A stretch of DNA of 64,000 nucleotides, from positions 94,245-158,244 of the forward strand of contig CAYOLO010000001.1 of NCBI GenBank assembly GCA_964404855.1. Direction: 5' to 3'. The notes below the pieces were generated by a model. The model searched no databases. It had not been told where the DNA came from and worked only from the letters and a program-made list of their open reading frames with translations. This DNA comes from an uncultured Gammaproteobacteria bacterium (GTDB taxonomy: Bacteria; Patescibacteriota; Microgenomatia; CAYQLK01). Below, one piece after another: positions 105-63,183 of the stretch (within the stretch, counting starts at the first letter, position 1; each line of letters opens with the position of its first letter). The translations under genes were made by a program, and so were the position numbers.

Positions 105-1370
105 TCATACTTTTAACATCCTCCTTCCACTTACGAGTTGTGGTATAAGCAAATCTCTAATTTTTCTTAACTTTTCATTTTTTTCAGATAAATTATCCTT
201 AAGCTCAAGAATGTTAATGCACTTGTTTTCAAATTCATCTAACAAGCCCTTGTCGGGAACAAGAATTTTATATTCTGAAATTGCAGCAGGTTTTAAATGT
301 AATACGTTTGCCCCATTTGCTTTATTTTTTGTGGTTTCAGTAAATCTATAATCTAAAAGCGTGTAATAAGTAAAAGCTGGTGGAATTTCCTGTGGAACAA
401 TTTTCACAACGTCTGCAGAGAATGTAATCTTCTGATTTCTGATATTTGGAATTCTTGCTGGTCTAGAAATAACTGCACGATCTGTAGTCATATCAGTAAC
501 AGCGACAACTATATCTCCTCGCTTTAATAACTGCTCTTCTTTTACTGAACCATTAAAATATTTAACTCCATCAAAGCGAAATCCTCCACCTCTATTAAAA
601 CTCTTAAGATTAACTAAATAATAGTTACCATCTTTATCGTTTATTTCCTCTGAAGAGTACGATGTTCCTCTTACAATTTTTGCAACCTCATCTATTCTTT
701 TCTCAACCCATCCTATAGGAACCTTACCCATAGAAGAGTCAATAAATTTAACAGTTTTATATCCAGGGTACTTAAAATTTACAAACCATTCAACGTAAAG
801 TCTTTGAGCGCTTTCTTCGAGAATCTTTATTCTTTTTGTATTGTTTTCAATTAAACTATCATACCTTTCTAGAATGTCTCCTACAGATTGCTGGGTTTTA
901 AAATCAGGAATCAAAATTTGAAAATTTTCAATGTCTGATTTAGTAAGTGCTTCTCTAGTTCCGCCTGTAGCAGAGTATCCCAGTAGACGTTTTTTGATAA
1001 ATGGATTTACTAAAAAGTATTTTAAGTACTTTCTGCTTAGGTTAATTTCATCTGCTCTAATTATTGAAACATGCTGGTTCACTCTCGCGGGCACTAAATC
1101 TTTGGGAACGCTCGTGATTCTGCCGACTGAAGCACCAGTTATATTAAGTAATACATCACCTTCTTCTACAATTACATTCTCAAGTTTTTTTGCTTGAACT
1201 TCATTTATAAAAGCAAGGTCATCGTAATTAAATTCTAGATCGTAAATATTCAGGCTTCTTATTAATGGTATTCCATTTTTAACATATGAGGATTTTCCGC
1301 CTCTTGGAGTAGCCCCGCTTCCTATCTTTGTTGTTATTTCTCTTAATTTATAACTATTCAATTTGCTCAT
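105..1370 (-). CDS. hsdS: Type I restriction-modification specificity subunit HsdS
   Basis: 421 aa with two target-recognition half-repeats. Conserved HsdS-like linker motifs include LIPQLVSGRR. Overlaps hsdM by 4 nt. Confidence 0.85.
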   Translation of the reverse strand: MSKLNSYKLREITTKIGSGATPRGGKSSYVKNGIPLIRSLNIYDLEFNYDDLAFINEVQAKKLENVIVEEGDVLLNITGASVGRITSVPKDLVPARVNQHVSIIRADEINLSRKYLKYFLVNPFIKKRLLGYSATGGTREALTKSDIENFQILIPDFKTQQSVGDILERYDSLIENNTKRIKILEESAQRLYVEWFVNFKYPGYKTVKFIDSSMGKVPIGWVEKRIDEVAKIVRGTSYSSEEINDKDGNYYLVNLKSFNRGGGFRFDGVKYFNGSVKEEQLLKRGDIVVAVTDMTTDRAVISRPARIPNIRNQKITFSADVVKIVPQEIPPAFTYYTLLDYRFTETTKNKANGANVLHLKPAAISEYKILVPDKGLLDEFENKCINILELKDNLSEKNEKLRKIRDLLIPQLVSGRRMLKV

Positions 1371-2941
1371 GATATTTTGTTTAAGTCATCACTAATTTTT
1401 ATTTCTAGTTCATGTGCTTCTTGAGTTAGTGTTTTAAAATCATTAGAAAGCGTCCTAATACGAGCATCGAATTCCACATCATCAATTTCTTTTTCAAGAA
1501 TATCAACATATCTTCCGGGGTTCAGTGAATATTCGTTTTGCTTTACTTCATTTATTGTTATAGTCTTGCAGCGCCCGGGGATATTCTCATACTTTCCTGC
1601 ACCTTCTTCATTTCTAAACCTTCTGACTATCCCCGCTAGCTCTTGGATTTGTTCATCTGTCCATTTGTTGTGTGCGCGATCAACTTGTGTGTAAACGTCT
1701 TGAGCGTTGATGAAAAGAATCTGATTTTGTCTATTTGTGCCTCTTTTCCCCTTATCCAAAAACCATAGTGTTGAAGAAAGCGGAACATTTAGAAACATAT
1801 TGGAAGGTGTAGTAATAATTACATCGACCAGACCTTGATCAATAAGATTTTTTCTAATTTCTTTTTCTGCGTTACCTGCATCCGTGGCACTGTTTGCCAT
1901 GACAAAACCGGCACGACCTTTCCCCGAGAGAGCGCTTGCAAACATCTGAATCCAAAGATAATTTGCATTACTTATCTCTTTCTTACCAGTTAGCGGAAGT
2001 CCCAAAAAATACCGTGGATCTCCTTGAATTCTTGAAGGGTCAATTACAAGTTGTCCTCTAGAATCTCTTCCTTTTACATTGAAAGGTGGATTAGCTAGTA
2101 CAAAATCAAATTTTCCTACACTTTGATAAACGTCTTCATAAAAAGAGTTGGCTGGAGTAATTTTTCCAGATAATCCATGTATAGCGAGGTTCATTTTGGC
2201 AATCTTTACTGTAGAATCGGTCTTCTCTTGTCCGTAGATTGCAACCTCATCCATGACTTGGGTGTGATTTTTCAAATGAGCTTTGACAAAGTTTGCAGAC
2301 TGAACAAACATACCACCACTTCCACAAGCAGGATCGTAAATTCGTCCGTGATATGGTTCGATAATTTCGACAAGCAGTTTAACTATTGATTGAGCAGTGA
2401 AAAACTCCCCTCCATCTTGGCCTTCTGCTTTTGCAAACTCACCTAAAAAGTATTCGTATATTTCACCAAACGCATCACCCTCAATATCATCTGGGATCTG
2501 ATTGAAATTCTTCAAAAGGGTGACGATAATTCTATTGTTTTCATCTGCTCTTGAAGAAAGAGTGGTATAGTTTTGAGGCAGTACTCCTGCGAGGTCACGA
2601 TTCTCTTCTTCGATAGCAGCCATTGCTTCATTTACTGCTTTTCCAAGATTTTCGTTTTCTGGAAGACTGATTAAATATGAGAAGGTAGCTTTTTCAGGAA
2701 CGAAAAGGACGCCACGAGCCTTATAATCATCCGGGGATACAGGACGTTGTCTGCCAGATTGAGATGCGGTTTTGCTTTTTTCTAATTCACCCTGAGCTTT
2801 TTTAAAACGAACGTCAGCAAATTTAAGAAATATAAGACCCAGAATTGGTTCAGAGATTTCATTTAGTTTAAGGCTGCTATTGGCACGCATGTGTTCTGCC
2901 GCTGCCCATAGTTGTCTTTGTAGTTGTTTCTTATCGCTCAT
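1367..2941 (-). CDS. hsdM: Type I restriction-modification N6-adenine DNA methyltransferase HsdM
   Basis: 524 aa. NPPFN catalytic motif (VLANPPFNVKG), an AdoMet-binding region and the HsdM N-terminal domain. Confidence 0.9.
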   Translation of the reverse strand: MSDKKQLQRQLWAAAEHMRANSSLKLNEISEPILGLIFLKFADVRFKKAQGELEKSKTASQSGRQRPVSPDDYKARGVLFVPEKATFSYLISLPENENLGKAVNEAMAAIEEENRDLAGVLPQNYTTLSSRADENNRIIVTLLKNFNQIPDDIEGDAFGEIYEYFLGEFAKAEGQDGGEFFTAQSIVKLLVEIIEPYHGRIYDPACGSGGMFVQSANFVKAHLKNHTQVMDEVAIYGQEKTDSTVKIAKMNLAIHGLSGKITPANSFYEDVYQSVGKFDFVLANPPFNVKGRDSRGQLVIDPSRIQGDPRYFLGLPLTGKKEISNANYLWIQMFASALSGKGRAGFVMANSATDAGNAEKEIRKNLIDQGLVDVIITTPSNMFLNVPLSSTLWFLDKGKRGTNRQNQILFINAQDVYTQVDRAHNKWTDEQIQELAGIVRRFRNEEGAGKYENIPGRCKTITINEVKQNEYSLNPGRYVDILEKEIDDVEFDARIRTLSNDFKTLTQEAHELEIKISDDLNKIS

Positions 2942-2942
2942 A

Positions 2943-3869
2943 TTATTTTTTCTCTAACTTAAAGCTAATCTTGTAAGTGTAAAAATCAATGTTTGGAGCA
3001 ACAACTAAAGCCCTGTGTATTTTGATGTCGTCTTCGAATGCTATGACAACACCTTTTACTTTTTGATTTTCTTCCGCAAGTTCTTCTTGGACATAACCCA
3101 TATATCTTTGAATCTGTCCAATGACTACATCACTCACGCGTCCTTTTTTTAACTCAACGACTAGAATTTCTTTTTTGTCTTTGCTTATGGCAAGGATATC
3201 AATGGGGCCGGTGTCGCTGGGGTATTGTTGACCGACAATTTCACCGTCTTCTTCATAAATATCATAGTTTTTTCCAAGTTCCGTATGGTGCCAATTCTGT
3301 ACCAGGAAGTCTTCAAGATGCTTTTCAAGCGCGAATATACTTGGATCTTCTATAGTTTCATCTGTAGATATAATTGAGGCCGGATGACTACCGGATATTA
3401 ATCCTTCAATCTCTTCTGCATATTTAGAGATATTGCTTACCGTTCCGATACTTCCTGCGGAGTTTCTTAAGGATTCACCAACTTCATCTCGTGAGATGGT
3501 TCTTGCATACCATCGAACATTTCGTCTGTGAGGTAAGTTTGCGCCTTTGTGATACTCATAGCCACCTGTGACTTCTCCAACCAAGTAACTACCTTGGCCG
3601 TCAGGGCAAAGTATAATATCTCCTACTAGAATCCCTTTTGCGATTGTATGAAGCATTCCACAAGCAAGTCCGGCAGATACTTTAGTCTTTTCTGGATTGT
3701 GTTCTAAGTAAATGGGAATGTATTTTTGATTAAATTCGCGCCAATTATCGGGTAATTCGTTTGTGAGGTCTACTTCGGGGAGCCATCCTGCACCAATATA
3801 GTTACCAACGTGCGCTTCTTTTGCGTAAGCACTCCTTCTGCCTAGCATTATACGATAGTAATTCTTCAT
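2943..3869 (-). CDS. Nuclease with C-terminal NucS/DUF91-like PD-(D/E)XK domain and an uncharacterised N-terminal domain
   Basis: 308 aa. C-terminus GPIDILAISKDKKEILVVELKKGRVSDVVIGQIQRYMGY matches the NucS/EndoMS catalytic-core pattern (D...E.K...Q..RY). Lies 1 nt upstream of hsdM. Confidence 0.5.
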   Translation of the reverse strand: MKNYYRIMLGRRSAYAKEAHVGNYIGAGWLPEVDLTNELPDNWREFNQKYIPIYLEHNPEKTKVSAGLACGMLHTIAKGILVGDIILCPDGQGSYLVGEVTGGYEYHKGANLPHRRNVRWYARTISRDEVGESLRNSAGSIGTVSNISKYAEEIEGLISGSHPASIISTDETIEDPSIFALEKHLEDFLVQNWHHTELGKNYDIYEEDGEIVGQQYPSDTGPIDILAISKDKKEILVVELKKGRVSDVVIGQIQRYMGYVQEELAEENQKVKGVVIAFEDDIKIHRALVVAPNIDFYTYKISFKLEKK

Positions 3870-3870
3870 T

Positions 3871-4602
3871 TTATTTTTCTACTTCCTTCGATTCTATTCT
3901 ATAAATACAGTGTTCACAGGTGGGGTCGGAGTCGGGAAGTGTGTTGGATTCGAGACAGTCACGGGCTTTGAGAAGGGCGTCTTCTACCCAACTAGCATCT
4001 CCAGTGTAAGGGAAAATCTCGACGTCAAATTCTAGTTTGCCATCGAAGGCTTTACGGTCTGTTCTTCCGTTTGCATAAACGAAATATCCAGTATTACTAA
4101 CATCGAATCCGCTGGAACGAAGAAGCCATTGATAGATTTCTATTTGTCTTTTGTAACCATCCTTATATGGACCATCCATGTCGATGCCTTTTTCCGAGGC
4201 GGTGCTTTTGTAATCAACGACATGAAGTTGATTGTCTGGTGTAACCCAGATGTCATCAATTGCTCCAGTGACGATAAAATTGCTGAGTGGATGATGGACT
4301 TGGATGCCTTGAAAGTTCTCACGCCAAATATCCATTTTGGGATGCTGGAATGGAACTGCATTTATTTTGTAATGTTCCATTAATGGATGGGCGGTGCCGT
4401 TGGCGCGGTGGACATCAAATTCTTTTTTGAATAATGTATCGACTGCGGAGTTGAGATTAAAAGAAGGCATCGAAGGTCGACCGACACCGAGACGGCGGTC
4501 GAGATAAAAACATCTTGGACATCTAGTAAAATCTTCAAGTTTGGAACGACTTAGTTTGAATGGGACTTTTGGGTCGGGGTTGAAGATGTTGCGTTGACGC
4601 AT
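3871..4602 (-). CDS. Cas4/RecB-family PD-(D/E)XK nuclease with a 4-Cys cluster
   Basis: 243 aa. N-terminal CPRCFY and C-terminal CEHCIY cysteine pairs flank a VVDYKST...EIYQW core, giving a Cas4-like architecture. No cas genes or CRISPR array nearby. Confidence 0.55.
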   Translation of the reverse strand: MRQRNIFNPDPKVPFKLSRSKLEDFTRCPRCFYLDRRLGVGRPSMPSFNLNSAVDTLFKKEFDVHRANGTAHPLMEHYKINAVPFQHPKMDIWRENFQGIQVHHPLSNFIVTGAIDDIWVTPDNQLHVVDYKSTASEKGIDMDGPYKDGYKRQIEIYQWLLRSSGFDVSNTGYFVYANGRTDRKAFDGKLEFDVEIFPYTGDASWVEDALLKARDCLESNTLPDSDPTCEHCIYRIESKEVEK

Positions 4603-4661
4603 TGGTATATTTTGAATTCGTGTATTTTAGCTTATTGAGGCAAGTAATGGGAGGATTTGTT

Positions 4662-4833
4662 AAATATTATGGATTTTATTAGTTTTTTACATTACATTCT
4701 TTTTTCAATATGTTTTCTTGGCACACCAAAAATCCCAGCGTGATTTTTGTTTTTCACTTTTTCTTCGTTCTTTTGCTTAAAGACAAAAACCATGCCCACT
4801 CAGAAAAAGAGATCCAAGAAAACATATTGAGGG
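4662..4833. repeat. Structured intergenic repeat element, copy A (5' module, hairpin module variant 1 and 3' attgagg module)
   Basis: Shares ttcttggcacaccaaaaatcccagcgtgatttttgtttttcactttttc...ccatgcccac...aaaaagagatccaagaaa...attgaggg with copies B, E and D. Contains nested inverted repeats. Confidence 0.8.
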
Positions 4834-4880
4834 AGTATGAAGTTAAGGGGCTAATAAACAGTTAGAATACGTAGATACTA

Positions 4881-5336
4881 TTAATTTTGTTGAAGTTTTT
4901 TTAATTTTTTATAATCAATTTGTTCTACCTCTCCATGTTCGTTTACAAAAAATAAATATAGATTTAATTTATCGCACACATCGTATGGAATTCGCCTGAT
5001 TGCCATTTCTTTAAAAGAAATGGGGTATCCAACCCCGTACTTGTATCCATATTTATATCCCCTTACTCCAGTTCTTTTCATTCGAGTAATTATTTGACCT
5101 AACGCAAGATTAAAATGAACCTCGCGATGAGATGATGGAAATTTTGCTCTTGTACTAGCATCACCCTTACATTCAATTAAAAAGTACCTTGAGACCTTAT
5201 TGTTTTTTACTTTTATATCAACGCCGTGCTGTTTAAGTGTTTTTGATTGAAGATTTTTGCTCCACCCTGATTTTGATAAAAATTCAATTATCTTTTCTTG
5301 AATAAAGTCCTCGGGTATTAATATTTGTTTATTCAC
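4881..5336 (-). CDS. Hypothetical protein, possible small PD-(D/E)XK-fold protein
   Basis: 151 aa. GVDIKV...YFLIECKGD resembles a D-x(n)-E-x-K nuclease core. Lies 20 nt downstream of dnaJ on the same strand. Confidence 0.4.
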   Translation of the reverse strand: MNKQILIPEDFIQEKIIEFLSKSGWSKNLQSKTLKQHGVDIKVKNNKVSRYFLIECKGDASTRAKFPSSHREVHFNLALGQIITRMKRTGVRGYKYGYKYGVGYPISFKEMAIRRIPYDVCDKLNLYLFFVNEHGEVEQIDYKKLKKLQQN

Positions 5337-6225: not shown

Positions 6226-6240
6226 GGTCTTTATTTAATT

Positions 6241-6482
6241 TAATATATTATTTTTCCAATTTACTTTTCTTGCACGTTCAAAATCCCAGCGAGATTTTGC
6301 ACTTTCACTTTTTGCTCGCTCTTTTGCGAACGCAAAATCCGTGCCCGCTTGCAAAAAGAGATCAAGAAAAATAAATCGGCGGGTAGATTTGGAAAAAAAC
6401 AAAAGGCGTCCACAGTAAAATATTGGGCTAGTTAGTTTGCTTATCAGCAAACGGGAGAGATCCACTAAAGAAAATTGAGAGA
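6241..6482. repeat. Structured intergenic repeat element, copy B (variant 1 core plus a partial variant 2 fragment)
   Basis: Core caaaatcccagcgagattttgcactttcactttttgctcgctcttttgcgaacgcaaaatccgtgcccgcttgcaaaaagagatcaagaaa, then caaaaggcgtccacagtaaaatattggg and gagatccactaaagaaaattgagag. Confidence 0.8.
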
Positions 6483-6520
6483 TAGGAGATTGGAATGAGA
6501 AAAATGGGAGATGCATGGGG

Positions 6521-7129
6521 TTATTTTTTGAATTTTTGACTTACACGAGGTTGTTTGTCTTCGCGAAAGTGGCGAGGACTTCTATCAGAAGGATGTTGAT
6601 AATATTGTCCAAAGACTCCAGGAGTTTTTTCTACGATATCGATTTCGCTTGTGTCGGTGAAAAATAATTCTATTGGAAATTCTTCCGGATCTTTGCCATC
6701 AAGATCAACCTCGCCAGATAATTGTCTTGCGATAGTTCTTTTACGTTTATCACCAAAAATTTCTTCCTCAGATCTAACGGCCTCACCCTGCATTTTGGCA
6801 ATTGGCAAAGCAGGAATAGATTTGTCTGGTCTTGGCATGGTAGGTTTGGGTTCGGCGGGCCTGGGTCTTGGGCGGCGGTCGATAACTAAATCTCGAGAAG
6901 ATCCTATTTTGGGTGCTTGTTTTGACTCTTCCCAAAGTTCGATTGCTAAGAAATATGTTTCAACCAGCCAACCACGATAACGACGATTGCCTTCGTCCTT
7001 AGCTTTTTGCGCATCACGCCTTAAAGCTTCTAGTCCTCGATGTGAAGATTGATATTGCTGAGCAACAACTAGTGCGGCTTGGCGTTTGTTTTGTTCTAAT
7101 TCTGATAATTCTGGATTTTCAAGTGACAT
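6521..7129 (-). CDS. Hypothetical protein (Pro/Arg-rich central region) embedded in the heat-shock operon
   Basis: 202-aa ORF between dnaK and dnaJ on the same strand. No recognisable motif. Confidence 0.5.
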   Translation of the reverse strand: MSLENPELSELEQNKRQAALVVAQQYQSSHRGLEALRRDAQKAKDEGNRRYRGWLVETYFLAIELWEESKQAPKIGSSRDLVIDRRPRPRPAEPKPTMPRPDKSIPALPIAKMQGEAVRSEEEIFGDKRKRTIARQLSGEVDLDGKDPEEFPIELFFTDTSEIDIVEKTPGVFGQYYQHPSDRSPRHFREDKQPRVSQKFKK

Positions 7130-7157
7130 TGTTTGATTTAATTAAATATTTTATAGG

Positions 7158-7176
7158 TTTTCTCCATATGGAGAAA
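7158..7176. promoter_or_regulatory. Perfect 16-bp palindrome TTCTCCATATGGAGAA, about 30 bp upstream of the start codon of the 202-aa gene
   Basis: tttctccatatggagaaa is read directly from the sequence. The homologous position in copy F is a hairpin with a different loop (ttctctaacgagaa). Confidence 0.5.
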
Positions 7177-7181
7177 CAGAG

Positions 7182-7319
7182 TTTTTTTAATCACACTTTT
7201 CACTTCAGCTCTTTGGACTGGTGTCGTCGAGCACCTTGTTTTGCCGTCGCAAAACAAAAGGCGTTCAAAGTGTGATTGGAAGTAAAGGAAACAAAATGCG
7301 TTCATAACGAAATTGAGAG
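7182..7319. repeat. Structured intergenic repeat element, copy C (variant 2 hairpin module, no 5' module)
   Basis: A 130-nt stretch nearly identical to 16381..16480. The outer 11-bp inverted repeat is AATCACACTTT...AAAGTGTGATT. The inner hairpin is ttttgccgtcgcaaaa. Confidence 0.85.
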
Positions 7320-7367
7320 TGATGACAAAAATGTCGGAGATAGTTTTTGGAAGAATTTGGCGAGTAA

Positions 7368-7703
7368 CTATTTCCTTTCTTTTTCTTGGTCTTCTGGATG
7401 TTTGGCTCTAATTGCAGCGACGGCCTCTCGTCGCATCCTAAGAATATTGAAGTTAATTATTCGTCCACGCTCGTCTTTGAAAGGAAGATTAGAAGCAGGA
7501 AGCGGAGATTCAGGAACGTTGACACCAGAAAGAGCTTCTTTGTGGTTGAGACGAGTAAGCGCTTCGGATATTTGGCCTTGAGTATAACCATCAGCACTGC
7601 CAGCTGGACTATCATCGGCTTTGTCCCAAAGAGCTTCTAGCTCTTCACGAGTTTTGGATTCTAGCCCAGTTGGTTTGGGTTGTGCTTCTGGCGTAAATGC
7701 CAT
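7368..7703 (-). CDS. Hypothetical protein directly downstream of dnaK
   Basis: 111-aa ORF, 10 nt after the dnaK stop on the same strand. Its GC content is higher than that of its neighbours. Confidence 0.5.
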   Translation of the reverse strand: MAFTPEAQPKPTGLESKTREELEALWDKADDSPAGSADGYTQGQISEALTRLNHKEALSGVNVPESPLPASNLPFKDERGRIINFNILRMRREAVAAIRAKHPEDQEKERK

Positions 7704-7713
7704 TTTTATTTTT

Positions 7714-9621
7714 TTACTTTTTTTCTTCTACGACTTCACCTTCTTGAGTCTCGCCTTCGGCGGTAGGCTCTTCGGATGGTTTTTCTTCTGATTCAGAGGC
7801 TTGGTCATTTGAAGCTTGTGGGCCTTCGGCTTGGTCATACATTGCCTGACCTACTTTTTGAGTCGAGGTACTAAGCTCATCGGTAGCTTTTTTGATGGTA
7901 TCGATATCATCAGCCTCGAGAGCTTCTTTAGCTAGTTTGACCTTTTCTTCAACCTCGGTTTTGACCTCGGCACTAACCTTGTCGCCAGCATCTTTGAGAG
8001 CTTTTTCGCTCTGGTAGATTAAGCTTTCGGCATTGTTGCGAACCTCAATGAGCTCTTTTTTCTTGTCATCTTCGGCCTTGTGAGCTTCGGCTTCTTTCAT
8101 CTTGGTTTCGACTTCTTCTTTACTTAGTGAAGTAGAACCTGTGATGGTAATCTTCTGCTCTTTGCCTGTAGCTTTGTCTTTGGCTGAGACAGCAAGGATT
8201 CCATTAGCGTCAATGTCGAATGTAACTTCGACTTGTGGAACACCGCGAGGTGCGGTTGGAATTCCATCAAGAATAAATCTTCCTAAACTCTTGTTGTCGG
8301 TAGCCATTTCGCGCTCACCTTGTAGGACGTTAATCTCTACAGAGGTTTGGTTGTCGGCCGCAGTTGAGAAAATCTGCGACTTGGAAGTCGGGATCGTACT
8401 GTTGCGGTCGATAAGCGGAGTGCGAACACCACCTAGGGTTTCGAGACCTAGGGTAAGCGGTGTGACATCAAGGAGAAGAATGTCTTTGACGTCTCCAGAT
8501 AGAACAGCTCCTTGGATAGCCGCGCCGATGGCGACAACTTCGTCAGGATTAATACCTTTGTTAGGATCTTTGCCAAAGAATTCTTTGACCTTCTCCTGAA
8601 CTTTTGGCATTCTGGTCATTCCACCTACGAGGATAACTTCGTCGATTGCCGTTGCTTCGACACCAGCATCTTTAAGGGTGTTTTTGACTGGAGTTAGGGT
8701 TTTTTCGATTAAATCTGTAACTAGCTCTTCGAGTTTTGCCCTACTTAGTTTGGTCTGCATGTGCTTAGGTCCAGAGTTGTCGGCCGTAAGATACGGAAGA
8801 CTTATTTCGGACTCTGTTGCACTAGATAGTTCGATTTTGGCTTTTTCGGCTGCGTCGCGAATTCGCTGCATTGCTGCTTTGTCGCCTGAGATATCAACAC
8901 CTTCGGTATTTTTGTACTCAGTTACAAGATGGTCGATGATAACTTGGTCAAAGTCGTCGCCTCCGAGGTGAGTGTCACCGCCGGTTGCTTTAACTTCGAA
9001 AACTCCATCGCCTAGCTCTAGAACAGAGACGTCGAATGTTCCACCACCAAGGTCGTAGACTACGATAGTGTGAGCATTTTTCTTGTCTAGCCCGTAAGCC
9101 AGAGCGGCTGCGGTTGGCTCGTTGATAATACGTTTGACATCAAGACCTGCGATTTCGCCTGCTTGTTTGGTAGCCTGACGCTGTGCATCGTCGAAGTATG
9201 CAGGAACAGTAATAACTGCTTCTTTGACATCTTCGCCTAGATAGCTCTCGGCATCTTTTTTGAGTTTGGCTAAGATCATTGCTGAGATTTCTTGTGGGGT
9301 ATAGGTTTTGCCGTCGACTTTGACGTCAGCAGAACCGTTTTTGCCCTCGACAACTTCGTAAGGAATCCACTTGAGTAGACTCTGAACTTCTTTGTCTTTT
9401 AATTTACGCCCCATTAGACGCTTAACACTGAAAATCGTGTTTTTTGAATTGACGACGATTTGGCGTTTGGCCACATCTCCGACAATGTTTTTGGTTGGAT
9501 CAACAACTGAAGGTACAGTATTACGACCTTCGGCTGAGTGGATAACTTTTGGTTCTCCACCTTCCATTACTGAAACAACCGAGTTGGTTGTACCTAGATC
9601 AATTCCTATTATTTTTGACAT
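7714..9621 (-). CDS. dnaK: Molecular chaperone DnaK (Hsp70)
   Basis: 635 aa. N-terminal [18 protein letters not shown] and the other conserved Hsp70 signatures, plus an acidic C-terminal tail. Confidence 0.97.
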
Positions 9622-9644
9622 ATATTTTGTCTCCTTTTTTTATT

Positions 9645-10118
9645 TTACTTATTTTTTCTATTAACTGTGACTGTTGCGGGACGAATAACCTTGTTGTTAA
9701 GCGTGAAGCCGTTTTTTAGTACTTCGGCAATAGTGCCGTCGGGCTCCCCTGTTACTTCGGTAACCGCCTCGTGGAAGTGCGGATCAAACTCGGTTACACC
9801 AAGTTCGATACTTATTTCCTGCAAACCCTCGTCCTCAAAAACCTTGCGGAACTGAGCGAGCACCATATCAAGCCCTGGGTCTTTGAGATGGTTTTGGGCA
9901 GTTAGCAGGTTATCGAAAACTTCAAGAAATTTGTAGAGAATGACGGAGCCAGAAAATTCTAATATCTGCTCTTTTTCTCTTTCTACTCTTTTTTGAAGAT
10001 TCTGATAATCGGCTAAAGCACGATGATAAGATTCTTTGTAATCAAGATTGGCTTCGACCTCACTAAGGTTTTGATCTATTTCGGGGTCGATTTTGGTTTT
10101 TGGTTTTTTGGTTTTCAT
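9645..10118 (-). CDS. grpE: Nucleotide exchange factor GrpE
   Basis: 157 aa. RALADYQNLQKRVEREKE, FDPHFHEAV and VIRPATVTV are GrpE signatures. Confidence 0.9.
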   Translation of the reverse strand: MKTKKPKTKIDPEIDQNLSEVEANLDYKESYHRALADYQNLQKRVEREKEQILEFSGSVILYKFLEVFDNLLTAQNHLKDPGLDMVLAQFRKVFEDEGLQEISIELGVTEFDPHFHEAVTEVTGEPDGTIAEVLKNGFTLNNKVIRPATVTVNRKNK

Positions 10119-10165
10119 GGTTTTTGTTTGGTGTTTTGACTTAATAACTAATACTGGCTAACTAA

Positions 10166-10897
10166 TTACCAGTTGCGCGAAACCTCATTAAGAAGGGATC
10201 CGAAATAGCGCAAAGTTGGGATGACGGTTTGGTATGGCAAACGACATGGACCAACAACGCCAATATAGCCTTCGCGTCCGTTGCCTGAGGAATATTTGGT
10301 AAAAGCAAATCCACATGGGACGAACTCAGCTAGAGCTAACTCATCACCAAAAACAACATGGACAACTTCGTCGCCATAGGTTCTACCAAAGACGTCGTTT
10401 AGTAATTCGTATCTATCGATAAGTCCCAGAACTGCCTTGGTTAAATCGATGTCGTAGAACTCCGGTTTGTCTAAGATGTTGGACATACCTGCAGCGTAAA
10501 CATCACCCGTTGCACTGGTAGCTAGAGCAAGAGTGTTGGTCTGCTCAGCGAGTGCGCGGGTAGCTTGACGCATTAGTTTGTCGTACTCAAATCTTTGATC
10601 CCAAAGACTTTCTTTGATACTAACCTCGTCGCGAACGGAGAGGTTTTTTTCTTCCATTAACTGGTTAATGTACAACTTGATGGCTTGTGAGGTTGGAATA
10701 CGCCCAGCAGATGTATGAGGCTGAACGAGATAACCCACCTTGGTTAAAGTAGCCATTTCGTTTCGAATAGTTGCGGGCGAAACACCAAGCCCTGCAATTT
10801 TTTCGATTGATTCTGAACCAACTGGTTCAGCTGTATCGATGTAGCGCTCTACGATTGATCGTAGGAGTTTGCGCTGGCGGTCTGTAAGATCCGTCAT
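10166..10897 (-). CDS. hrcA: Heat-inducible transcription repressor HrcA (short form)
   Basis: 243 aa. N-terminal winged-helix region LTDRQRKLLRSIVERYIDTAEPVGSESI, typical of HrcA. It is the first gene of the hrcA-grpE-dnaK operon, with a CIRCE element upstream. Confidence 0.85.
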   Translation of the reverse strand: MTDLTDRQRKLLRSIVERYIDTAEPVGSESIEKIAGLGVSPATIRNEMATLTKVGYLVQPHTSAGRIPTSQAIKLYINQLMEEKNLSVRDEVSIKESLWDQRFEYDKLMRQATRALAEQTNTLALATSATGDVYAAGMSNILDKPEFYDIDLTKAVLGLIDRYELLNDVFGRTYGDEVVHVVFGDELALAEFVPCGFAFTKYSSGNGREGYIGVVGPCRLPYQTVIPTLRYFGSLLNEVSRNW

Positions 10898-10933
10898 AAA
10901 TTGTTAGTAACACAAGTTTCAGTCTGCGAAAAC

Positions 10934-10975
10934 TTGTATTAGCACTAATGTACTACAAGTGCTAAATTGTGTCAA
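10934..10975 (-). promoter_or_regulatory. Putative sigma-70 promoter of the hrcA operon (TTGACA-N17-TACATT) overlapping CIRCE
   Basis: The minus strand reads TTGACAcaatttagcacttgtagTACATT. CIRCE spans the spacer and the -10 element. Confidence 0.6.
10939..10965. promoter_or_regulatory. CIRCE operator (HrcA binding site) TTAGCACTA-N9-AAGTGCTAA
   Basis: ttagcactaatgtactacaagtgctaa is a 9-N9-9 inverted repeat matching the CIRCE consensus TTAGCACTC-N9-GAGTGCTAA. It lies 42 nt upstream of the hrcA start. Confidence 0.85.
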
Positions 10976-11102
10976 TACTTATGTATAAATAGGAAAAATT
11001 TAAGGTTTTTCTTCTAAAGAAACAATGGGTTAATTCTTTTATTAAAAGATAATTTTTTATATTTCCTTCTTCACTTTTTGCTGAGTGGTATAGCTAGGCT
11101 AG

Positions 11103-11265
11103 AAAATATTAATTTAATTACAATTTGCTTTTCAATTCGCTTGCTCGCACACTTGAATCCCCTGCGAGGATTCTGCATTTTCAGTTTTTGTTTACTGTTT
11201 TTACCTAATGGTAAAAAGCCATGCCAGTTAAACAAAAACAGATCTTCGCAAAGCAAATTGAGAGG
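11103..11265. repeat. Structured intergenic repeat element, copy D (diverged variant 1)
   Basis: aatttaattacaatttgcttttcaat...gaatcccctgcgaggattctgcattttcagtttttg...ctttttacctaatggtaaaaag...ccatgccagt...caaattgagagg. The hairpins are kept by compensatory substitutions relative to copies A, B and E. Confidence 0.7.
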
Positions 11266-11293
11266 ATAAGATAAAGGAAAAGATTAAGAAAAA

Positions 11294-11314
11294 GGCCCCG
11301 AGGTTAGTCGGGGC
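11294..11314 (-). terminator. Intrinsic terminator hairpin ggccccga-ggttag-tcggggc
   Basis: GC-rich stem followed by a T-tract on the minus strand (tttttcttaatct), at the 3' end of the GC-rich membrane-protein gene. Confidence 0.55.
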
Positions 11315-11582
11315 GGTCGTTGGTGAGGCTGCCACCTGTGAGAACCGTGTACGCGAAACCCAACAAGATGTGCAGAAGCGAAAAAATTAGCCACATGTAA
11401 GCAGTAGTAAACATGGATAGAATCCAGAATGTTTTCCACTGCCCATATGGTAGTTCGTCGTCGAATGTGTAGATTGCCCCTACCGTTAATCCGACAGCAA
11501 AAGTAGCTGCGGGAATAAGAATAAAGGCGAATCCGTGAAGGTATTTGCGCAGGCAAATGCCTATCAGAATCGGCGCAGACAT
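11304..11582 (-). CDS. Small multi-pass membrane protein (possibly the 3' part of a frameshifted gene)
   Basis: 92 aa with two to three hydrophobic helices in a GC-rich region. The upstream ORF 11564..11728 lies in the +1 frame and encodes another TM helix. Confidence 0.4.
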   Translation of the reverse strand: MSAPILIGICLRKYLHGFAFILIPAATFAVGLTVGAIYTFDDELPYGQWKTFWILSMFTTAYMWLIFSLLHILLGFAYTVLTGGSLTNDRPD

Positions 11583-11728
11583 GGGAGCGAGTGTCCAGAT
11601 GAGTCTGGTGTGAGGTAGTCTTGGTCTGTGTCGAAAGATTTGAGACCAAGATAGAATCCGGCTTCAGCAAAAACTGCAGCGATCAGCGTCAAATAAATGA
11701 CGAACTGGACTAGACATAATCGATTCAT
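11564..11728 (-). pseudogene. Possible 5' fragment of a frameshifted membrane-protein gene (MNRLCLVQFVIYLTLIAAVFAEAGFYLGL...)
   Basis: Overlaps the start of ORF 11304..11582 in a different frame. Joining the two would give a single 3-4 TM protein of about 146 aa. Confidence 0.3.
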
Positions 11729-11803
11729 CTCCGCCTCTTTTTTGTTTTGAAGGAACCTTAAGTGTGGAATTGTAGCTACTTGTGAGTAAATTGGCAAGAA
11801 AAT

Positions 11804-11825
11804 GCCCTCCGTTTGACGGGAGGGC
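11804..11825 (-). terminator. Hairpin gccctccg-tttg-acgggagggc downstream of gene 11859..12230
   Basis: GC stem with a one-base bulge, followed on the minus strand by attttcttgcc. Confidence 0.4.
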
Positions 11826-11858
11826 TTAATAGGATGAACTCTGGCGATGGTGCTTAGC

Positions 11859-12230
11859 TTAGTGCCAGTCAGGGACGATGATGTGGAAGAAGTACTTGCC
11901 TCTCGAGTCAGGATCGTCTACCTGCTCCTCGATTTCTTCCAGCTCCTCGTGGGTCACGAAGGCTTCGCGAGGACTGTCTTCGACCCAGACGCTGGCGGTG
12001 AAGTCGACCTTGCCTGGAACAATGACGTAGACCTTGATGTGAATCTTGTGATTGTCGAGTCCGCCGTAGTACGAGAAGTACCAGTGTGGAGAGTCGCTTG
12101 CGGGTTCGTACCGGATGAGATTGGCCTCGAAAGGCGCTCCAATCCGATGGGCGTCAGCGATCTGGGCGAGTGTCAAAGGGTTCGACACATAGTGGCCAGG
12201 CGCTAAGACGCGGGTTGCGACCGTGGACAA
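11859..12230 (-). CDS. Hypothetical protein (GC-rich island)
   Basis: 123-aa ORF at about 55-60% GC. A terminator hairpin lies downstream on the minus strand. The antisense plus-strand ORF was rejected. Confidence 0.5.
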   Translation of the reverse strand: MSTVATRVLAPGHYVSNPLTLAQIADAHRIGAPFEANLIRYEPASDSPHWYFSYYGGLDNHKIHIKVYVIVPGKVDFTASVWVEDSPREAFVTHEELEEIEEQVDDPDSRGKYFFHIIVPDWH

Positions 12231-12420
12231 GGAAACACCTTACCTTTGTAATGTTCTGACCCTGATTATATCTCTTTTGAGGCTAAATGTCAAATACTAC
12301 AGGATACTTTTGCTTGCAAAAGGATCATGCAGGACGTAGTGAGAATTTATGAAATAACGAGCTTTACCGAAGTTATGAATAAATACGAGCGAGTAACTAT
12401 AGGCACTGGAGGGCGTTGGG

Positions 12421-12576
12421 AAATATATTAATTTTAATTACAATTTTTTTTCAATCCACTTTCTTGGCACAACAAAAATTCCAGCGTGATTTTTGTTTTT
12501 CACTTTTTGCTCGCTCTTTTGTTTACACAAAAACCATGCCCACTTACAAAAAGAGATCCAAGAAAGTAAATTGAGG
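12421..12576. repeat. Structured intergenic repeat element, copy E (5' module plus variant 1), located inside the GC-rich island
   Basis: aaatatattaattttaattacaattttttttcaatccactttcttggcacaacaaaaattccagcgtgatttttgtttttcactttttgctcgctcttttgtttacacaaaaaccatgcccacttacaaaaagagatccaagaaagtaaattgagg. Confidence 0.85.
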
Positions 12577-12577
12577 A

Positions 12578-12620
12578 GATAGAAAAAAGACAAAAAAGGC
12601 CCTCCTTTTTAGGGGAGGGC
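12578..12620 (-). terminator. Intrinsic terminator gccctcc-tttttagg-ggagggc with a U-tract on the minus strand
   Basis: 7-bp GC stem. Its flank aaaaaagacaaaaaag gives a tttttt run for minus-strand transcripts ending after gene 12642..13157. Confidence 0.65.
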
Positions 12621-12641
12621 TTGGAGGGAGGAGAAATCGTT

Positions 12642-16175: not shown

Positions 16176-16245
16176 AAAAATTTAAGTTTAGTGGCGCTAT
16201 TCTAGCAGGAAATGAGGGTTTTGTGCGTAATTGGGAGATTTTTAT

Positions 16246-16518
16246 AAATATTTATTTTTAAATTACATTCTTTTTTCAATCTACTTTCTTGGCGCACTGT
16301 AGTTTTCTCTAACGAGAAACAAGGTTTTTAGACTTCCCTTTTGTTGAGAGATTTGGTTTTCTTCTACGAAGAAGCAAAGTTTTTTTAATCACACTTCTCA
16401 CTTCAGCTCTTTGGACTGGTGTCGTCGAGCACCTTGTTTTGCCGTCGCAAAACAAAAGGCGTTCAAAGTGTGATTAGGAATAAAGGAAAAGAAAGAGATC
16501 CACTAAAAGGTATTGAGG
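16246..16518. repeat. Structured intergenic repeat element, copy F (5' module, linker hairpins, variant 2 and a 3' gagatccactaaa..attgagg module)
   Basis: The longest copy. It combines the 5' module seen in A and E with the complete variant 2 module seen in C. Confidence 0.85.
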
Positions 16519-16611
16519 AATATGGGAAAGAAACGGTGGTTTTGATTTGGGGAAGGAGAAGGAAAAGAATCTATTACTTAGACGAAACTAAACTCGGAGG
16601 AGTACGGTACT

Positions 16612-62883: not shown

Positions 62884-63183
62884 TTATAATAATTTTTCTA
62901 GTTCAGTTTTAACCTCAAGGGAGTTTTTTTTGGATATATCTTTGCGAACCAATATAGAGATTTCTTTTTTTTGGGCAAAAGAGGGTGAAATTTCTAAAAA
63001 TGCGGCCACGACTATCCTGCGAACCCTATTGCGATCAACCGCTAAGGGACAGGTTTTTTTGGGAACAGTCACAATTAACTTGTTTGTGTCAGCGGGCCTG
63101 GAATTAACAATATAGTAAGGCGACGAAACGGTGTTGGAAAAATTGCGGGAAAATTTTTTGAGGCTCTGAGAGCGCGGGAGCAT
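62884..63183 (-). CDS. rnpA: Ribonuclease P protein component
   Basis: 99 aa, basic. RNR motif region (VDRNRVRRIVVAAF). Its start overlaps the rpmH stop (TAATG). Confidence 0.85.
   Translation of the reverse strand: MLPRSQSLKKFSRNFSNTVSSPYYIVNSRPADTNKLIVTVPKKTCPLAVDRNRVRRIVVAAFLEISPSFAQKKEISILVRKDISKKNSLEVKTELEKLL

Follow-up and report, generated by a model that had tools for sequence, protein, structure and literature searches.

In this study, we have shown that the intergenic spacers of a 64,000-nucleotide (nt) chromosomal stretch from an uncultured Candidate Phyla Radiation (CPR; Patescibacteria) bacterium of the Microgenomates group, referred to here as the window (contig CAYOLO010000001.1, positions 94,245 to 158,244), carry a multicopy element, designated type 1, that folds into a branched structure. 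The stem sequences of this element drift while their pairing is kept, and the loops are held constant; these results support selection on a single-stranded fold. Searches with BLAST and a covariance model located four full copies in the window (A, B, D, and E), all on the minus strand and with 70 to 86% mutual identity. The core of the unit is about 135 nt long (about 170 nt including a polypyrimidine leader and a trailer), and its GC content is 0.34 to 0.51. No Rfam 15 match was obtained over the type-1 copies, no description of such a family was found in the literature searched, and the family appears to be undescribed.

The copies share a three-way junction: a closing stem (P1, 16 to 17 bp), an arm in which the clamp P3 holds the inner hairpin P4, and a second hairpin (P2) whose ACGCNGG loop is conserved. 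The P3-P4 arm has a conserved G-rich internal loop, with AGYGGGCAYGG facing GAGCGAG. Read along the minus strand, the order of the parts is polypyrimidine leader, P1 5' arm, P3 5' arm, AGYGGGCAYGG, P4, GAGCGAG, P3 3' arm, P2, GYGUGC, P1 3' arm, and A-run. The copies, with their covariance-model scores in bits, folding-energy z-scores for the minus strand, and stems (5' arm/3' arm), are as follows.

4702-4835, minus strand: copy A, full element; 145.7 bits; z = -4.47; P1 4814-4830/4705-4721, P3 4802-4811/4755-4764, P4 4784-4788/4771-4775, P2 4742-4748/4728-4734
6253-6384, minus strand: copy B, whose end is 28 nt from the start codon of the dnaJ-like gene (6225); 137.3 bits; z = -3.85; P1 6363-6379/6256-6272, P3 6351-6360/6306-6315, P4 6333-6337/6322-6326, P2 6293-6299/6279-6285
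11129-11266, minus strand: copy D; 104.7 bits; z = -4.22; P1 11245-11261/11132-11147, P3 11232-11241/11182-11192, P4 11213-11217/11199-11203, P2 11168-11174/11154-11160
12448-12579, minus strand: copy E, with an orthologous copy in the close strain L158; 137.8 bits; z = -3.96; P1 12558-12574/12451-12467, P3 12546-12555/12501-12510, P4 12528-12532/12517-12521, P2 12488-12494/12474-12480
12533-12545, 12511-12516, 12481-12487, and 12468-12473, minus strand: conserved unpaired blocks of copy E
12580-12597, minus strand: polypyrimidine leader 5' of P1 in copy E, from the flank listing and locus views
12422-12447, minus strand: AT-rich 3' trailer of copy E, where similarity between copies reaches past P1; promoter-like on both strands

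A C/T-rich leader ending in CCTC precedes each type-1 copy and fragment, and D and A have trailers resembling that of E (11103-11128 and 4685-4701, respectively).

None of 200 dinucleotide shuffles was as stable as the corresponding full-length copy on the minus strand, and the unconstrained minimum free energy structures of the full copies have P1, P2, and P3 in common. Segments cut short of P1 gave weak z-scores, which explains why the hairpins look unimpressive on their own. All 38 model pairs of copy A are Watson-Crick pairs and its P1 is perfect; copy B has 36 Watson-Crick and 2 G.U pairs. At least five kinds of P2 stem surround a single loop (CAAAAAU/AUUUUUG, CAAAAUC/GAUUUUG, GAAUCC/GGAUUC, CAAGCC/GGCUUG, and GAAAUAU/AUAUUUC). 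A putative pseudoknot that joins GGCAYG of the internal loop to YGUGCC of junction J2/1 could comprise 4 to 6 pairs; covariation cannot test it, because both segments are nearly invariant.

The original prediction, made by reading the sequence of the window, held that covariation between hairpins of these repeats reflects selection on secondary structure. That claim is supported by the folding energies, by covariation across 18 copies (below), and by the conserved loops within variable stems. Neither of the two outcomes named beforehand as grounds for discarding it, a lack of covarying pairs and folding energies like those of shuffled controls, came about. The hairpins that it quoted were all found on the plus strand: the inner hairpin at 12517-12532 (E), 6321-6336 (B), 11199-11220 (D), and 4771-4788 (A), and the 5' hairpin at 12474-12494 (E), 6279-6299 (B), and 11154-11174 (D). 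The 5' hairpins do keep their pairing; the loops given for B and D were one g too long, the stems being caaaatc/gattttg and gaatcc/ggattc around a 7-nt loop. An outer clamp, ctttttgc...gcaaaaag, described as conserved in A, B, and E, needs correction, since its last c is unpaired in E and copy A has ctttttc...gaaaaag, a compensated G:C to C:G change. The largest helix, the P1 stem that closes each copy, had escaped attention.

For the metagenome scan, the seed was a pattern taken from the conserved loops only, and candidates were confirmed with the covariance model. At least 14 further type-1 copies were found in related genomes and metagenomes, at least 12 of them model-confirmed copies from the metagenome scan; as a control of specificity, about 110 other pattern matches (646 kb) yielded no covariance-model match. 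Contig L004 has two copies, upstream of hrcA and of lepA, L138 also has two, and those of L051 and L060 are degenerate. In a search for the wider family, a second model gave no match around hrcA at more distant loci or beside dnaA/rnpA. The loop core is almost unchanged in contigs of an organism whose YidC is only 27% identical.

Covariation was assessed on 18 copies from several genomes in an alignment fitted to the 38-pair model. Standard pairs are formed in 90.0% of cells, compared with 66.7% in shuffles, and changes on both sides occur at 31 of the 38 pairs. The covariation score was 0.565, against 0.18 for shuffled data and about 0.1 when partners were slid by 1 to 3 columns. A structure-blind MAFFT alignment of all copies recovered P2, with covariation, and P2 only, because the 5' parts were out of register; an alignment-free test was therefore added. 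In that test, complementarity in P1 was 10.9 between a copy's own arms and 5.3 (standard deviation, 1.45) with the arms of other copies, and the corresponding values for P2 were 5.9 and 3.3.

Four lines of evidence moderately favor the minus strand as the functional one. On this strand, which is the one modeled, G.U pairs outnumber A.C mismatches by 23 to 11, and it folds better than its complement in 17 of 18 copies, including those that are antisense to their neighbors; for copy B, the antisense z-score is -0.90. The orthologous E locus of L158 encodes an identical 123-amino-acid (aa) protein and has near-identical flanks, and the element itself differs at about 10% of positions. Compared with E of the window, P1 of the L158 copy shows three one-sided transitions, all via G.U on the minus strand, and P3 shows a G:C to C:G change on both sides. 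At A, B, and D, strain variants were lacking or identical in sequence, and E alone was informative.

We tentatively interpret the structured interspersed intergenic repeats, at somewhat short of even chances, as a folded RNA module that is carried in same-strand transcripts, binds a protein through its loops, affects processing or stability, and is spread by recombination. One strand, which in the window is the gene-sense strand, folds into the three-way junction. Because the loops stay constant while the stems drift, they are probably where a trans-acting partner, in all likelihood a protein, makes contact. The element seems to have neither a promoter nor a terminator of its own and would be transcribed passively, as an intercistronic, untranslated region (UTR), or read-through segment of same-strand units. 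In its folded form the RNA would work in cis, marking or protecting transcript boundaries through processing or stability. REP, ERIC, and bcr-type repeats mark or protect transcript boundaries elsewhere. New copies, and their homogenization, would come from recombination and gene conversion between intergenic regions rather than from cut-and-paste transposition. The signals that bear on transcription of the window copies are the following.

12599-12620, minus strand: terminator of the gene upstream of E, from a terminator scan; 7-bp stem with 6 G:C pairs and a T run, 22 nt before E
11295-11314, minus strand: analogous terminator before D; 7-bp stem with 6 G:C pairs and a T run
12265-12293, minus strand: promoter of the 123-aa gene, TTGACA-N17-TATAAT (12 of 12 matches in the promoter scan), about 155 nt downstream of E

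The scan found no terminator-like site separating the upstream gene from the element at A and B. Copy D is flanked by its terminator and by the CIRCE/hrcA promoter (10947-10975), and a conserved TGCTAGAAT promoter follows the lepA-linked copies. Type-1 neighbors include unrelated genes, with no coherent gene set.

Several observations weigh against an RNA module. Strong intrinsic terminators precede D and E by 22 to 28 nt, and the next promoter comes about 150 nt after each copy, so that their sense transcription would need read-through; despite this position, D and E are as well paired as the other copies. In the AT-rich subgroup 2 (L045, L089, and L138), the element is antisense to both neighbors, 10 to 16 nt from a stop codon. 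G.U makes up only 3.5% of the pairs, and the model alignment favors its own strand. All copies in the window fall within 4.7 to 16.5 kb, and the covariance model and the pattern found none in the remaining 47 kb or so. The main weaknesses of the RNA-module interpretation are thus the terminator-to-promoter site of D and E, the antisense copies of the AT-rich subgroup, and the fact that transcription, like the binding partner and any effect on mRNA, is something that we infer.

RNA and single-stranded DNA (ssDNA) both remain candidate levels of selection. If the fold formed in DNA, during replication or after uptake, a structure-specific recombinase or HUH nuclease would act on it to copy or move the element, and covariation would reflect competence for mobilization. 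Integron attC sites, IS200/IS605, and REP hairpins are analogues of such a site, and attC and IS200/IS605 lack target-site duplication, as type 1 does. Presence/absence polymorphism, different subtypes at orthologous sites, pile-ups of fragments, and the occurrence of both orientations relative to neighbors all fit an ssDNA site, as do pairs that are almost all Watson-Crick, the location of D and E in poorly transcribed gaps, and the one-strand asymmetry. We nevertheless consider it unlikely: the window holds no integrase, HUH, or transposase gene, the ends of the element are not conserved, so that there is no R-box-like or cleavage motif, and copies within a genome are only 70 to 86% identical, which speaks against a recent burst. 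Gene order and GC skew conflict, so that the replication strand cannot be assigned and is of no help in choosing between RNA and ssDNA. The right window end (62884-63183 and beyond, L154) adjoins rnpA/dnaA-dnaN, the usual origin neighborhood, and GC skew on the plus strand is positive over nearly the whole window (overall, +0.10), opposite to the prediction for an origin at dnaA. Slightly less probable than an ssDNA site is that each copy is a small-RNA gene in its own right, with P1 joining the 5' and 3' ends of a multicopy RNA that acts in trans or sequesters a protein. Protein-binding small RNAs typically have conserved loops in covarying stems, the core is conserved across very distant hosts, and the subgroup-2 copies, being antisense to their neighbors, would need transcription of their own. 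A -10-like TACAAT/TACATT lies 6 to 8 nt before the first P1 base on the plus strand in A, D, E, L121, and the composite copy F described below; in the E trailer it belongs to TTGGGA-N17-TACAAT (plus strand, 12416-12444). However, this promoter-like trailer is on the worse-folding strand, the one with the A.C mismatches, and it is absent from subgroup 2 and from copies with a small-hairpin trailer. At D and E, the gap that separates terminator from P1 is too short to hold a sense promoter, no conserved promoter was found on the better-folding strand, and no terminator follows P1 on either strand.

The original prediction also argued that the repeats are not mere promoter or operator copies, and this stands in its main part. 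A double-stranded DNA regulatory module, in which an outward promoter, a protein-binding operator, or both would lie ahead of the next gene and the hairpins would arise incidentally, seems to us improbable, because variable stems with conserved loops are the opposite of a site that is read by sequence; stems that vary yet stay paired are not required by a sequence-reading protein, and such a module would not account for the strand asymmetry. What speaks for it is that subgroup-1 copies are followed by promoters that point the same way, that by inspection an AGCG(N)GC-like motif occurs four times in the conserved blocks, and that the P1 3' end in D and E reads TTGAAA with TAATAT 17 to 18 nt on (TTGAAA-N18-TAATAT, minus strand, 12454..12425 in E and 11135..11106 in D). 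These promoter-like hexamers in some 3' trailers are missing in L004 and subgroup 2. The trailers may contribute a promoter, but this cannot explain the stems. We give even less credence to an absence of structural selection, in which palindromes are kept perfect by template switching in quasi-palindromes together with gene conversion between copies. Gene conversion is directly seen in L158, and the nearly complete Watson-Crick pairing fits such a process; however, about 100 nt separate the P1 arms, one-sided changes go via G.U on one strand, the loops are conserved across hosts as distant as that with the 27% identical YidC, and the existence of the degenerate L051 and L060 copies indicates that decay happens once constraint is lost.

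The distribution of type-1 copies is not conserved between close relatives. L002, whose HrcA is 98% identical to that of the window, lacks both the hrcA-linked and the lepA-linked copies. L121, with lepA DNA that is 89% identical, has a D-like copy upstream of lepA, whereas the window has at this site a broken E-like copy with an element of a second type (type 2, below) inside. In L004, 5' fragments are stacked ahead of full copies. The E copy of L158 carries an A-like core, and therefore copies convert one another; part of the compensation seen between copies is gene conversion from other copies, not independent double mutation. Conversion imports part of the compensation in one step, yet it leaves the origin of the still-paired variants unexplained. 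All eight contigs shown with this exact HrcA stop 96 to 216 nt ahead of hrcA, at D itself or just before it is reached; in practical terms, the element breaks metagenomic assemblies at the same places. Fragments within the window are located as follows.

6456-6484, minus strand: orphan type-1 5' fragment upstream of B, from direct-repeat and pattern matches
16276-16297, minus strand: type-1 3' fragment of composite F, with the 5' fragment at 16494-16517

The orphan fragment is followed by a small hairpin (6435-6452) and then by a type-2 5' fragment (6394-6425), an arrangement found intact in L002 (8480-8660). The fragment arms of F do not pair together, and F is therefore regarded as a broken or recombinant copy. 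The lepA-upstream spacer in which it lies (16176-16540) is a composite, built from a type-1 5' fragment, a complete type-2 element, two small hairpins, a second type-1 start, and a type-1 3' fragment with an arm mismatched to the 5' fragment; in L002, the corresponding spacer is only about 39 nt long.

Other repeated modules share these spacers.

7166-7296, minus strand: type-2 structured repeat, copy C, found with nhmmer; different core, 11-bp closing stem, and two inner arms
16365-16498, minus strand: second type-2 copy, in F
7157-7178, 16302-16321, and 16355-16379, minus strand: small hairpin module, also present, for example, at L004:9698-9725

Further type-2 copies are at L001:3686-3813, L002:8548-8650, and L003:4601-4724 and 7515-7635. 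RNAalifold on six type-2 copies gave 30 pairs, 11 of which have compensatory changes. Type 2 is unrelated to type 1 but has the same leader and trailer flanks. The small hairpin module, CTGTTTCTCC-N4-GGAGAAAACC, follows the A-run behind many type-1 and type-2 copies; its stem varies with compensation, and on the opposite strand it resembles a weak terminator placed directly ahead of the element. A further repeated module, which ends in GCGAGTAACTAT, occurs at 7318-7381 and 12329-12410 on the plus strand of the window and at L004:4145-4209 and 9374-9438. It is fused to type-1 cores in L051 and L060, takes either orientation relative to the structured repeats, and in some copies contains a short conserved reading frame (MTKMSEIVFGR..., MAKMSESVFGRILPSNYLLY*). 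Repeated modules also include terminator and promoter sequences (11799-11827, 12594-12622, and 12266-12319, and in L071 and L062): the terminators at 11799-11827 and 12594-12622 share 86% identity, and both the terminator and the TTGACA-N17-TATAAT promoter block are found again, with 87% identity, elsewhere in L071 and L062.

The window HrcA is 95 to 99% identical to that of four metagenome-assembled genome contigs (L001 to L004) and about 50% identical to those of Daviesbacteria and Gottesmanbacteria. HrcA and synteny in L001 to L004 and other HrcA loci are typical of Microgenomates CPR bacteria, and the record titles "uncultured Gammaproteobacteria" and "Pseudomonadales" look mislabeled. Between 3.9 and 16.2 kb, all genes are on the minus strand; they comprise lepA, several small genes, hrcA-grpE-dnaK, a 111-aa gene, a 202-aa gene, a dnaJ-like gene, a 151-aa gene, and a PD-(D/E)XK nuclease gene, and structured repeats fill the spacers that separate them. 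A CIRCE operator overlapping a TTGACA-N17-TACATT promoter (10940-10975, minus strand) lies ahead of hrcA-grpE-dnaK; this is ordinary HrcA regulation, distinct from the repeat. The start of the dnaJ-like gene (6226-6256 region, minus strand) is 28 nt past copy B and has no Shine-Dalgarno sequence; a leaderless mRNA is possible, and so is translation from a transcript that includes copy B. Directly downstream of the chaperone genes is a type I restriction-modification set (HsdS and HsdM), in a block (105-5336, minus strand) that also holds two PD-(D/E)XK/NucS-like nucleases and a NOV_C-like protein and has copy A inside it. Two overlapping open reading frames of 128 and 77 aa (11284-11797, minus strand) correspond to a single 140-aa gene in the close strain (L158:860-1282) and are possibly the product of a frameshift or a pseudogene.

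CPR bacteria have small, uncultured genomes with poorly understood regulation, in which very few noncoding elements have been defined. Here, a covariation-supported junction and a near-invariant loop core persist to a distant host, and single copies appear, vanish, fragment, and convert. If the RNA-module interpretation is true, the element would show how CPR bacteria mark or stabilize transcript boundaries near chaperone and translation-factor genes; a DNA-level site would instead point to an unknown recombination system. A bolder proposal, which we think unlikely, is that the element is no passive repeat but a new functional RNA class or structure-specific DNA site in very distant CPR lineages, whose invariant G-rich core (AGCGGGCAYGG, GAGCGAG, ACGCNGG, and GYGUGC, around the three-way junction) would bind a dedicated protein or small ligand and control or insulate neighboring units (the chaperone operon, dnaJ, lepA, and others).

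Several known classes were rejected as identities for type 1. An RNA thermometer or heat shock leader does not fit: the element is not placed over a ribosome-binding site and lies upstream of the hrcA, lepA, and 123-aa-gene promoters and beside unrelated genes. Riboswitches and other cis-regulatory leader RNAs resemble it in their three-way junction, invariant core, covarying stems, and several copies per genome; however, type 1 has no consistent 5' UTR site, expression platform, Rfam match, or coherent gene set, and its orientation varies. A classical miniature inverted-repeat transposable element does not fit, since target-site duplication is lacking (longest common substring of a copy's own flanks, 5.6, compared with 5.7 in mismatched controls), the P1 arms differ between copies and covary, and there is no transposase, integrase, or reverse transcriptase among the approximately 58 window proteins. 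As for a phage origin, a single pattern match in viral contigs proved to be no element, and phage contigs were without type 1. Integron attC sites are similarly conserved in structure rather than sequence, favor one strand, and lie between same-strand genes; unlike them, type 1 has no R'' (RYYYAAC) or R' (GTTRRRY) boxes and no integrase, its ends vary (TCAAT/ATTGA, TCAAC/GTTGA, TTTA/TAAA, CCTA/TAGG, and TCTG/CAGA), and its flanks are syntenic housekeeping genes with their own promoters. REP units are simple G+C-rich hairpins of about 35 nt that are linked to RAYT genes. Type 1 shares with REP/BIME elements the intergenic mosaics of shuffled modules (type 1, type 2, small hairpins, terminator, and promoter blocks); it differs in being about 135 nt long, A+T-rich, and branched, not a short palindrome, and no Y1/HUH (RAYT) or tyrosine recombinase gene is present in the window.

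ERIC elements form one long hairpin and have conserved terminal repeats with a TA flank. They are imperfect palindromes of about 127 bp that are intergenic and often transcribed, and in some cases they affect mRNA stability (PMC3184786). Type 1 differs from ERIC in its three-way junction, variable ends, and lack of duplication. The bcr1 repeat of the Bacillus cereus group is about 155 bp long, intergenic, and multicopy, with a closing stem and two stem-loops in a cruciform-like arrangement; its RNA-level fold is kept by compensatory changes, and its distribution is not conserved between close strains (PMC3184786). The bcr repeats are located in UTRs and operon spacers (PMC3446304). Unlike type 1, bcr1 has flanking 5-bp direct repeats, and there is no sequence similarity between the two, which belong to different phyla; in addition, the type-1 loop core is conserved across very distant hosts, and for type 1 transcription is a prediction. 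The likeness to bcr1 extends to length class, intergenic multicopy occurrence, a closing stem with two arms, a compensated fold, and a strain-variable distribution. With multiple intergenic copies per genome, a compensated fold, and a distribution that varies among close relatives, type 1 is best read as a structured interspersed intergenic repeat, closest to bcr1 and ERIC.

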